Assembly: GCA_021432655.1 (NCBI GenBank)
Contig: MU271193.1
Coordinates: 106,961-170,960, forward strand
Origin: Atractiella rhizophila
Lineage: Eukaryota
DNA: 64,000 nucleotides
Direction: 5' to 3'
A program made the position numbers and the translations under genes. Positions 43,230 to 62,759 of the stretch are shown here, piece after piece (position 1 is the first letter of the stretch; each line of letters starts with the position of its first letter). The notes below the pieces were generated by a model, which saw only the letters and a list, made by a program, of their open reading frames with translations, was not told the DNA's origin and ran no database searches.

Positions 43230-44374
43230 TCACCGGAGCGCCTCGTCCCTGTCAGTGACCCATCCTCGTATTGCAACCCCGTCCACCTGTTGAATTCGAT
43301 CGTCATCCAACTCTCTCTCTCTGCGACAAGATGCTATATCTCTCAGCTCCCTCACAAAATCCTCACTTTACTTCGGCTTTCTCCAGAAGGACACTTTTTA
43401 CAGCAGTTTCAACGATGGCGAGGAGGAAGAATCCGAGTTTTCGAAAGTCAGCCATACATGGAAACTTCTTTCGGTTCCTTATTGGATGGAGCCTTGGAGT
43501 GCGGTTGAGAAACATGATAGATTGAAACGGTATCCTGGTGCAGGACGTCTGTGGAAGAGGCTTAACTTCGAGCAAGTCGACGATGAAAAAAAAGTCAAGA
43601 TGGTGAAAGAAGTTATTGCAGGCTCAATGAATGTTAGGGAGCTGTGCATGAGACCATTGTGGAATGAAGCGGAGGCAAAGGTGGTGTTGAATGCAATTGC
43701 AAGCTTGGGGAGGGTGAGTGTGTTACCTTTGGGCAGGTCGATCCTGAAAGGTGGAAGAAAGAGGATGTGGAGTACTTTCTTCGGAATACGAAGGGGAAGA
43801 GTACACGTCTCACGTACGACACGGGGGGCTCTCCCTCGTCCGCTGCCCCTCTGGGATCAACCCTCCATCGATTAACTCCTCATTAGAAACCCTAGACCTC
43901 AACAACTGCCATTCCATCCTGACGAATGGCTCTCCCTCCTCCCAGACACTCTTCAGCAGTTTCGACTTATGGATGTGAGTCTCCTCCCTGACTCTGTCGG
44001 CTCTTCGCCATCTAGCCTGCGAAAACTAGAGCTAGTACTCTTTCCGTTTTCTTTCCTGCACGAACCACTCGACTGGTCACACCTTGTACACCTAACCTAT
44101 CTCATTCTTGACGGCGGAGCAGAAACATTGCCGTGAATTCCTCAGCACTCTTAAGACGACGAAGGTCAGGCTGGTCGAGCTTGCCTACCTGGTGACGGAG
44201 TGGTCAGAGCTACCGCATTTCATCCACAGGTTCTACAAGGTTAATCAAGGATATTCTTTGAAAATTAGGTTATTCTTTGGTGAGGTATCTGATGAGGTAC
44301 TTAATAAGGCTCTGAGCGTAGTAAAAGAGCATGGGAGCAAACATGATCGGGTTGACGAGCCTGAGGATGATTGA
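43230..44374 (+). pseudogene. F-box/LRR-like pseudogene, paralog of 12940-14733
   Basis: PWSAVEKHDRLKRYPGAGRLW...VKEVIAGS aligns to PTSAEEKYARLTQYPFAGRLW...KELIAGS. It has several frameshifts and lost its 5' end at the edge of the TE nest. Confidence 0.78.
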
Positions 44375-59995: not shown

Positions 59996-60886
59996 ATTGG
60001 ACGTGATGATGAATCCTATGTCACGCACAGAAGATGCTCCAAGTGAAGGAATGTAGGGAAGAGGTGATCTATCAACCTTTAAACCTATAGATTGCATGCG
60101 AGAAGACCAAGCAAATAACCACACAATCATACGATTCAGCCCAGATTTTAGAATAAGAGAGATCACGTAGAAAAGAGAAAGGACTTCAGAGAGATAAAAG
60201 GAAGAGAAGCGATGACAAGACCCGTTTGTCAGTCAGTCAGATGATGATTTATCATAATCGTACACAACTCATTTTCGCCCTACCGACCTCAACCGCGAGA
60301 GAAGAGACTGATGGGAATGAAAGAGAAGCCGAGACGTAAAACTTTCAAAAAGGGGAGAGGGACGAGACCATTTAAGTTTCAAGCAAAGCTGGGATCTGAG
60401 GGAAAGGGGGAGGAGGGACAAGTTATACAATACAACAAAACCAAAAACAAACCGCCGAAAACAGAAGAAACCTTTATCAGCAGCTTAATCCTGAGATTTC
60501 TGTCTGGAGAGCATCTGATTTCTGCCGAAAGTCGATAGATGTCCATTGTGTTGAAACGGCAAGAAAGGGAGAAGGGAGATGCAGGCGTAAGAGGTGTTGA
60601 GACCATCAAAGAAACTCTTGAAAGGACGAGATCTGGTATGACACAAGGACAATTAAAGTCATACTACCGAGACTGGTTTTGCTTGTAGGACGGATTGGTT
60701 GGTCGTTTGTGATACTGGGAGAACGTGAACGAATAAAAAGGCGAGATAATGCTAGATTGGATACGTTGTTGTTCGACGAGGAAACCGAATCTTTGAGTCC
60801 CGAAGCTTTGGAATCGTCCCTATACGCCTCGTCAGCACCTGATTATGCCGTCAGGGATAACGAACCCAAAGGGATTTTTTGAAATC

Positions 60887-62004
60887 TTAGAATCCACCTC
60901 CTTGGTTATATCCTCCTTGTTGGGGATATCCACCGTAGTTAGGTTGCTGCCCTCCGAAGGCTCCACCTGTAGTGGATAAGCATTTGTGCTAGTAAAGTTT
61001 GAGCTGATACCTACCCTGCATTCCCCAGTTTCCGCCAGGTTGCCCGTATCCTTGATTGAAGCCACCCTGGTTGGGGAAACCACCTTGACCATAACCTTGT
61101 TGCTGATACCCTTGGTTCTGGTAGCCACCTGCATTCTTCATCAGAGGTTTCACGTGAAAACAGGTGAACTGCATACCGCCATATCCTCCTCCTTGCTGGC
61201 CAAAAGACTGATTGCTGAATCCTCCTCCTCCTCCTCCTCCTCCGCCAGCACGCTGGAACATGGTTTAGTCCAGCACATTACGCGAACAACAAAGTGGCGA
61301 CTAACCTGGTTTGCAACATTGACCTTCAAACGGCGACCGTCTAAAAAGAATGTTAAAATAAAGAAGGGAAGGCGGAGAAGAACTCACCCTGAGTTGCCGA
61401 AAGAACGATGAGCGCACAACGGTGACAGAGGGGTTGCCGTGAAGAAACCGACGGAAAGCACCAAGACGAAATGGAGACAACACAGAGCGGCGCAGGAGCA
61501 GACGAGACCAAATTGGAGAGACGGATATCAGAGAGGCGACAGGGGAACCAAAAAGAAGCCAATCAGAACTAAATTTCAACTGGGAATTCAATGGGAGATA
61601 GGAACGGAGGAAACGGAAGCCGGCCCTTCAGTCTGCGATGACCAATGTCCAAATGGAACACAGCAAGTTTCAAGGCAAAAGCAAGCCACGAGCCCCCGAC
61701 CCGCCTCCGTCATGTTGTTACAGTTGAAGACGCACCAACTCCTGGTCATTCATCGCGGAAATAGCGTTATCTGCCTCCTGCTGGCTTCCAAACGTGACAA
61801 AACCGAATCCTCTGCTCCTGCCCGTCTGAGGGTCCTTCATAACAATAGCATCGATAACCGGTCCGAATGGTAGGAAGGTGGCTTTGAGGGTCTCGTCTGA
61901 GGTTCCCCAGGAAAGATTTCCGACATAAATTTTACTCCTGTCCCAGAAATGGGGTTCAGCCATCCAAAGCCGTTTGATTTTGGCCTTGACTAGAGGGCTC
62001 ACAT
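60887..62004 (-). CDS. Glycine-rich RNA-binding protein (single RRM plus G/Q/Y-rich tail)
   Basis: RNP2 KIYVGNL, RNP1 RGFGFVTF, AMNDQEL-DGRRLKVN and GGYQ/QGGF repeats. Inferred exons: 62004-62003, 61937-61736, 61388, 61340 to about 61306, plus three further tail exons. Stop TAA at 60887-60889. Confidence 0.9.
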
Positions 62005-62759
62005 TCTGGTATATCCTAGAGATACAACGATGAACGAAACAGGCGAGAAACTTAGAAATCAAGTGCGAGAGACTGTTGATGGTCGCAGAAGCAATTTGCT
62101 CTTTTGAGTCAGAGGGTTAGCGTATTTCAAGCGGGCCCCTCGCGGGGGCATATTAATTATCGTTCACGACCTTATTCTAGGCGCCGTTCCTTTTTCTGTT
62201 CCTTTTTGGCGTCCAACGCTGAGAATTTTGTTTCGAACTCGAGTCGGGCCACTTTTCATGGCATTTATCCTGGCCCAGACAACGCCATCAATATACCTAC
62301 ATATTTTAGGGTCGTTTCAGGCTTCTGGGATACGAGTAACAGCTCGCTCAACTTTCCAAAGCTTCCCCAAGCGTTCCTGGTCCACTTTTCTGTTTCTCTC
62401 AGAATCTTGAAGAAGCCGAGATTTAGTTAGATTAACAAGAGATTGAGCTAGATCAGGAATAGAGATCAGATTGATGAGATTGAACCCGCGTTTTATTGCC
62501 TCCGCTTCACCAGCTCCGCTTGAATCTCGCCTCGAACTCAGTCAAGCGCTCCAGTTTGCTTGCAGCATTGTGCTTCTCGGCGAGAAGCCTCATCATTTAT
62601 TTCGATGACAATAGATCTTTCTTTGGACAGCATTGCTGCATAAATGAATAACAATTGCGAATCACTAGAAGATAATCAGTCCCAAGCTGATATTGATTGA
62701 CACAAGGTGTAGGCCATGACTGCTGCGACAATCATGCAACGGACGAGATCAATCCGAGC

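Follow-up and report, generated by a model that had tools for sequence, protein, structure and literature searches.

Exons of a single nucleotide, the smallest size possible, have been described in both plants and fungi. A constitutive one-nucleotide exon occurs in the Arabidopsis gene APC11 (Guo and Liu, 2015; PMC4674806) and another in the CYP621A P450 genes of Fusarium, which its authors count as the second case overall and the first from a fungus (Nelson and Syed, 2026; PMC12940212). In Coprinopsis cinerea, annotation with long reads yielded 13 one-nucleotide exons in 13 genes, or approximately one per thousand genes (PMC12230235). The case from Atractiella rhizophila that we describe here adds to these and is not the first of its kind. 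A preliminary description of the locus, made from its letters alone, had held that only a few such exons were on record, in plants, a view that the Fusarium and Coprinopsis cases have put out of date.

As in APC11, the A. rhizophila locus has a single nucleotide, placed between two GT-AG introns, on which the reading frame depends; the public model is wrong in both cases (most likely so in A. rhizophila). Furthermore, the authors of the APC11 study favour intron definition with the introns removed one by one (PMC4674806), as we propose here. However, APC11 is a different gene in a plant, its exon is the base A333 and the proof came from mutated GFP constructs, whereas in A. rhizophila the evidence consists of RNA contigs and a partly spliced form; the upstream intron, which is partly retained and seven times as long as is usual for this gene, also sets it apart from the APC11 account. 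The likeness to CYP621A is that the gene is fungal, that the base is a G with AG before it and GT after it, and that automatic annotation fails; the warning sign there was an over-long apparent intron and the joint was confirmed by public reads, and the same applies here. Conversely, the CYP621A genes are from Ascomycota, encode a P450, carry the exon as the middle base of a Gly codon and are rarely expressed, and neither a partly spliced intermediate nor a splicing order is given in the Results or abstract of that account (PMC12940212). Coprinopsis is, like Atractiella, a basidiomycete, but it belongs to the Agaricomycotina, and the text of its five supplementary files contains neither 'glycine-rich' nor 'RRM' and does not name the 13 genes (PMC12230235).

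The gene lies on the minus strand of the window, by which we mean the whole 64-kb stretch of A. rhizophila DNA that was analysed, and encodes a glycine-rich protein of 169 residues with a single RRM; the species belongs to the class Atractiellomycetes of the Pucciniomycotina. Of 22 public runs listed, 20 contain part of this stretch, and four were compared, namely X1 (apparently DNA), X3 (apparently RNA), X4 (kind unrecorded) and X13 (a metatranscriptome according to its record). Each was compared as assembled contigs, not raw reads, and such contigs reveal neither rare forms nor true ratios, and neither strand nor the ends of the RNA. In X3, X4 and X13 the ordinary introns of the gene are spliced at GT..AG, and thus their contigs derive from RNA; for X3 and X4, which are not recorded as RNA, this assignment rests on the spliced joints. 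The features of the gene, in the direction of transcription and with cuts marked by a slash, are as follows.

62003..62082, minus strand: exon 1, the 5' UTR and the AT of the start codon (X3 contig 18 covers 62002-62082 and is joined to 61936)
61938..62002, minus strand: 65-nt GT-AG intron splitting the start codon AT/G (X3 contig and X4 loose end)
61736..61937, minus strand: RRM exon, the G of ATG and 67 codons, ending in phase 0 with ...CAG GAG TTG (sequence and Pfam)
61389..61735, minus strand: upstream intron, 347 nt, GTGCGT...CTCAG (X3 contig 17, X4 contig 21, X13 contigs 14 and 15)
61388..61388, minus strand: very probable one-base exon, a G that opens the Asp codon GAC of EL-D-GRR (AG/G/GTGAGT and RNA joints)
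61341..61387, minus strand: downstream intron, 47 nt, GTGAGT...TTTTTAG (depth 6.08 in X3, 722.3 in X4, 12.1 in X13)
61306..61340, minus strand: exon AC GGT CGC CGT TTG AAG GTC AAT..., the remainder of the Asp codon and RRM beta-4, GRRLKVNVANQ (sequence, frame and contigs)
61253..61305, minus strand: 53-nt GT-AG intron (X3 contig 16, with 41 letters for 61212-61305; an X4 loose end at 61306 agrees with the exon that follows)
61177..61252, minus strand: exon with the (GGA)n Gly run, where the glycine-rich tail begins (frame)
61129..61176, minus strand: 48-nt GT-AG intron (spliced in three runs)
61015..61128, minus strand: exon, glycine/glutamine/tyrosine-rich tail (frame)
60967..61014, minus strand: 48-nt GT-AG intron (spliced in three runs)
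60866..60966, minus strand: last coding exon with the TAA stop at 60889-60887, then the start of the 3' UTR (frame)
60820..60865, minus strand: 46-nt GT-AG intron within the 3' UTR, starting 21 nt past the TAA (spliced in X3, X4 and X13)
60700..60819, minus strand: remaining 3' UTR (X3 contig 16, X4 contig 19, X13 contigs 9 and 10)

The outer limits are those of the material compared: 62082 is the reach of an RNA contig and not a mapped 5' end, and 60700 is the edge of the compared stretch, beyond which the contigs extend. The joint in X3 contig 18 skips 65 letters and is canonical when the cut is moved by +1, with AAT/GTGAGC at the end of exon 1, and the loose end at 61937 in X4 matches exon 1. 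An X4 contig fits the RRM exon as far as 61775, beyond which its 23 remaining letters differ from the window; these may stem from a paralogue, an alternative 5' region or a chimeric contig. The (GGA)n run at 61212-61253 corresponds to nine consecutive Gly residues and was repeat-masked in the contig comparison, so that cover there is uninformative.

The RRM exon (to 61736) matches Pfam RRM_1 (E=8.3e-21) over profile positions 1-64 of 70, and thus the last strand of the RRM sits past the junction at 61736. One RRM_1 domain with RNP1 and RNP2 is followed by a low-complexity, Gly-rich C-terminus, and relatives found in protein searches bear the source name glycine-rich RNA-binding protein. The junction at 61736 is where the frame is at stake. 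When 61736 is joined straight to 61340, the frame is shifted and runs into a stop after six codons, as the preliminary description had anticipated for the conserved EL-D-GRRLKVN; with the G at 61388 included, 169 codons are open and the translation reads ...NDQEL-D-GRRLKVNVANQ, followed by the Gly/Gln/Tyr-rich tail. Base 61388 is therefore needed both for the reading frame and for the conserved Asp, which stands in the EL-D-GRR turn that precedes strand beta-4.

On the minus strand TTG ends at 61736, GTGCGT begins at 61735, CTCAG ends at 61389, the G stands at 61388 and GTGAGT begins at 61387; the 47-nt intron closes with TTTTTAG at 61341, and AC GGT CGC CGT opens the next exon at 61340. Re-reading of the sequence gave exactly the strand, the layout and the positions (61736, 61388 and 61340) first proposed. 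AG-G-GTGAGT spans 61390-61382, the donor at 61387 is strong, and the base is flanked by AG and GT. Both introns are of workable length and carry a branch-like motif, TTAAC in the 47-nt intron (as first noted), with its A 12 nt from the 3' end, and CTCAT 20 nt from the 3' end of the 347-nt intron. The 64-kb window contains two copies of AGGGTGAGT, where 0.63 would be expected, and a count of two is attained in 13 of 100 shuffles; the AG-G-GT motif by itself is within chance, and the case depends on the RNA contigs. The other copy, at 43711-43719 on the plus strand, may be an ordinary exon end.

The preliminary description had proposed reading cDNA across the junction, and the RNA contigs carry what it predicted, exactly one G in TTG-G-AC. 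This mature joint, 61340-61735, skips 394 letters, with one letter fitting either side, and was present in two runs, X3 (depth 40.2) and X4 (5289.5). A second joint, 61340-61388, skips 47 letters at GT..AG and was present in three, X3 (6.08), X4 (722.3) and X13 (12.1), in contigs that extend into the 347-nt intron (61388-61764 in X3, 61388-61702 in X4 and 61388-61540 in X13). In a 325-nt contig of X13 the 61340-61388 joint occurs together with the next two downstream introns spliced, and the lengths of the pieces sum exactly, with no extra letters. Words of 31 letters across CTCAG-G-ACGG are absent from the genomic DNA and from the mature mRNA, and thus these contigs represent real partly spliced molecules. 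As a rough measure, the intron-retaining form makes up 13% of the summed contig depth in X3 and 12% in X4. None of the splice joints occurs in the DNA run X1, and no sequence variant at base 61388 is listed in the contigs of the four compared runs. X13 has no cover over 61726-62181 and hence no mature joint, which is neutral evidence.

A mature joint with one G can be placed in more than one way, as the mature mRNA alone is ambiguous on its G, which fits 61735, 61388 and 61341 alike. We therefore enumerated every intron combination that gives the mature sequence, the two-intron case being limited to canonical introns no shorter than 30 nt. There are just two single-intron routes, both non-canonical (GT..TA or TG..AG), which means that the mature mRNA holds one base that no single canonical intron explains. 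Two-intron routes pass either through G 61388, with two GT-AG introns, or through G 61625, an AG-G-GC site at which GCCGGC would have to serve as donor; only with G 61388 are both introns GT-AG. Splicing is seen at the GTGAGT donor of 61387, and this selects 61388 over 61625. We consider it very likely, accordingly, that G 61388 is a true one-base exon between the 347-nt and 47-nt GT-AG introns, and that these are removed one after the other.

The most serious alternative is a single intron of 394 nt with a non-canonical end, cut either as GTGCGT...TTTTTA/G or as G/TGCGT...TTTTAG, the RNA spliced at the 47-nt intron being a side product of a cryptic donor. The mature junction fits both of these cuts equally, and the contigs include none in which the 347-nt intron is removed alone. 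However, such cuts need splice dinucleotides that U2-type introns almost never use, GT..TA and TG..AG ends being exceptional among them, and the six other introns of the gene are all GT-AG. A fully canonical two-step route is available, and the intermediate that it predicts is present in all three of the RNA-derived runs compared, with about 12-13% of summed depth in the two runs that contain both forms. We therefore regard a single non-canonical intron as improbable.

Even less probable is that the public gene model is correct. It would place the donor 4 nt further on (TTG GTG C / GTCTTC) and the acceptor at 61341, for a canonical intron of 391 nt and the reading EL-VH-GRRLKVN; the public protein P0121, which is 100% identical over the RRM exon, reads ...QELVHGRRLKVN, and its sites are GT..AG and keep the frame. 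Against this, the joint 61340-61732 occurs in none of the three RNA-derived runs, in which the joint seen is at 61735 (a minor isoform could be missed), GTCTTC is a poor donor, and the Val-His displaces an Asp kept by 113 of 152 relatives. An assembly error at the donor is likewise unlikely, and we give next to no credence to a missing G there (true sequence TTG G/GTGCGT, one ordinary phase-1 intron, no microexon), which was the refuting case named at the outset: it too would yield TTG-G-AC in the mRNA, and X1, the best DNA run, may be the window's own source data and so not independent, but X1 Logan contig 6 (875 nt, 61378-62252) has no gaps, the intron-retaining X3 contig 17, from another study under another organism label, crosses 61735/61736 with its only gap at 61693, GG is no error-prone homopolymer, and the observed use of the GTGAGT donor would be left unexplained.

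For the one-base exon, the sequence also offers a reason for stepwise splicing. The AG of the 347-nt intron and the exon G together fill positions -3 to -1 of the 47-nt intron's donor (AGG/GTGAGT), and because this context is shared, two spliceosomes could not occupy both introns at once and removal would have to be sequential. This steric argument, which draws on the footprints of U1 and U2AF, would mean that the two introns cannot be recognised simultaneously. The same argument is made for a one-base exon in the Discussion of the APC11 paper (PMC4674806). In our proposal, the short downstream intron of 47 nt would be removed first, fusing the G to the 35-nt next exon to give an exon of 36 nt; the 347-nt intron would then meet a normal acceptor, CTCAG/GAC GGT, and leave as an ordinary intron, its removal being slow or incomplete. 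The order itself, with the short downstream intron first, is supported by the contigs, as the 47-nt intron was seen excised alone in three runs. The 347-nt intron was seen excised alone in none, and contigs cannot show absence. We infer that this partly spliced RNA goes on to become the mature mRNA; alternatively, it may be a dead-end isoform. Removal of the downstream intron first also matches the order for the 9-nt exon of potato invertase cited in the same Discussion (PMC4674806).

The preliminary description had foreseen ordered or recursive splicing and had suggested a search for intermediates retaining one of the two introns. The first part of each proposal stands, with sequential, downstream-first removal and the 347-nt retained form in three runs; a recursive-type intermediate was not seen in the contigs, and the form that keeps the 47-nt intron after loss of the 347-nt intron is not listed in them, contigs being prone to drop rare forms. 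At a recursive site the acceptor stands directly before a donor, the upstream part is removed first, and the regenerated 5' splice site is then used, leaving nothing in the mRNA. The A. rhizophila locus is similar in having an acceptor directly ahead of a donor and stepwise removal. However, a zero-length recursive site, of the kind named in the Discussion of PMC4674806, is rejected here: the G stays in the mRNA, and the intermediate observed is the opposite one, with the downstream intron gone and no regenerated donor. A route through a regenerated donor (TTGG/GTGAGT) is possible as a minor path. Stwintrons, which are nested spliceosomal introns of fungi, are also removed in two consecutive reactions; one type shares a single G, and they have been proposed as a route for one-nucleotide intron shifts (PMC5587772). 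In a stwintron, however, one intron sits inside a splice signal of the other and the two are not separated by any exon base, and we rejected this reading for A. rhizophila, where each intron is a complete GT-AG unit and a coding G stands between the two.

The 347-nt intron is unusual in its own right. It is about seven times the length of the gene's six other introns, which measure 46-65 nt, and it is 64% pyrimidine. A hidden RNA gene within it, whether for a snoRNA or another RNA, was considered and rejected: an Rfam search of the intron gave no match up to E=10, it folds more weakly than its shuffles (z +2.18, with 100 of 100 shuffles folding at least as well), it holds neither direct nor inverted repeats, and an antisense open frame of 153 codons has no Pfam match. 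RNA contigs show one-base indels in this intron at 61411, 61413 and 61667 (X13) and at 61693 (X3); as these contigs are from other samples, the intron varies between strains while the splice pattern is constant. X1 carries differences from the window as well. At 61343-61407 it has three parallel short contigs: the first is window-like, at depth 50, the second carries 61373 C>T, at 71.9, and the third carries 61377 G>C, at 77.1. Both substitutions are within the body of the 47-nt intron and clear of the splice sites and TTAAC. In the RRM exon, positions 61829 and 61868 differ as well, and a variant contig at 62223-62364 has eight differences. The variants in X1 point to a sample with more than a single haplotype or type of nucleus.

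When the 347-nt intron is retained, the reading frame meets a TAA at 61720-61718, six codons past the start of the intron and ahead of several exon junctions. The retained form would thus encode an RRM without beta-4, and it would be a candidate for nonsense-mediated decay. In plants, AtGRP7 and AtGRP8 undergo unproductive splicing, in which an isoform with a premature stop is made beside the productive mRNA (PMC3526319). These proteins also have a single RRM and a glycine-rich tail, and their premature-stop isoform is also intron-derived; in A. rhizophila, however, the whole intron is retained, and any action of the protein on its own RNA would be purely by analogy. The resemblance to AtGRP7/8 is only a lead.

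The public record for this gene, P0121, is a partial hypothetical protein of A. rhizophila reading ...QEL-VH-GRRLKVN. This model is most likely wrong, and the real protein has the conserved Asp in place of Val-His. Among 152 RNP1-bearing relatives from three protein searches, [ED][LMV]DGR is found at the junction in 113, and the models of Agaricomycotina, Ustilaginomycotina, Ascomycota and early-diverging fungi mostly read ELDGRR. In the Pucciniomycotina the picture is different, as all 10 of the named models seen leave the family sequence directly after the invariant QEL (alignment A1). They are from A. rhizophila, Microbotryum saponariae, M. silenes-dioicae, Rhodotorula sphaerocarpa, Sporobolomyces ruberrimus, S. 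blumeae, S. johnsonii, S. carnicolor, Rhodosporidiobolus poonsookiae and R. nylandii. The model P0153 reads through from EL for at least 60 codons and begins with Val-Arg, as the GTGCGT of Atractiella would. P0152, P0013 and P0014 come from short contigs (900-2500 nt for P0013 and P0014) and read ELDGRR. Three Aspergillus models of 68 aa (P0124, P0126 and P0146) end at EQ or DQE, just before the EL-DGRR junction, and annotation trouble at this junction may be wider than the Pucciniomycotina.

To see what the deviating models contain, we checked whether the peptide after EL in the two Microbotryum models is the family sequence of P0152 read one base off frame. With one G prepended, 22 of 24 positions in one model and 21 of 24 in the other can encode the P0152 residues, against means of 8.6 and 8.4 and a maximum of 15 in 2000 shuffles. 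It follows that in both models a phase-0 donor behind Leu is paired with an acceptor ahead of AC/AT GGT, leaving them short by exactly one base, and the geometry of the outer junction is that of the Atractiella gene. A shared one-base exon in Microbotryum is likely on this evidence. One Sporidiobolales model has Gly-Thr after EL and is also compatible with a plain G/GT donor. Among 80 metagenome loci, none is interrupted at the junction; three (L001, L002 and L005) are fungal-type, continuous and cDNA-like, and the other 77 are bacterial-looking single RRMs of the RGFGFVEM type. A loose search of the literature on Pucciniomycotina found neither 'microexon' nor 'micro-exon', which is no proof of absence in print.

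A broader reading would make the one-base exon and the slow, long upstream intron an ancient arrangement across the Pucciniomycotina (at least Atractiellomycetes and Microbotryomycetes), acting as a splicing-order switch for the level of the gene's own protein. The RNA-binding protein itself, or another factor, on the unstructured and pyrimidine-rich 347-nt intron would delay the last splicing step, and transcripts would be diverted to the premature-stop form, which would set the protein's own level. We put this forward very tentatively and think it unlikely as a whole.

In summary, this work describes a smallest possible exon that is backed by RNA data, in a conserved and highly expressed gene. 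The visible partly spliced form gives the order of intron removal, a point that the Arabidopsis paper left open (PMC4674806). What is new here is the presence of that form in three runs, the unusually long and partly retained upstream intron, the correction of the public model, and a hint of conservation together with systematic mis-annotation across the subphylum. Introns of 47 and 347 nt around a single base constitute a natural substrate for work on intron definition in fungi and on the steric limits of the spliceosome. Finally, the failure of all 10 named Pucciniomycotina models at one junction suggests that the layout is old, and that annotation pipelines may be losing the beta-4 strand and the tail of this protein across the whole subphylum.
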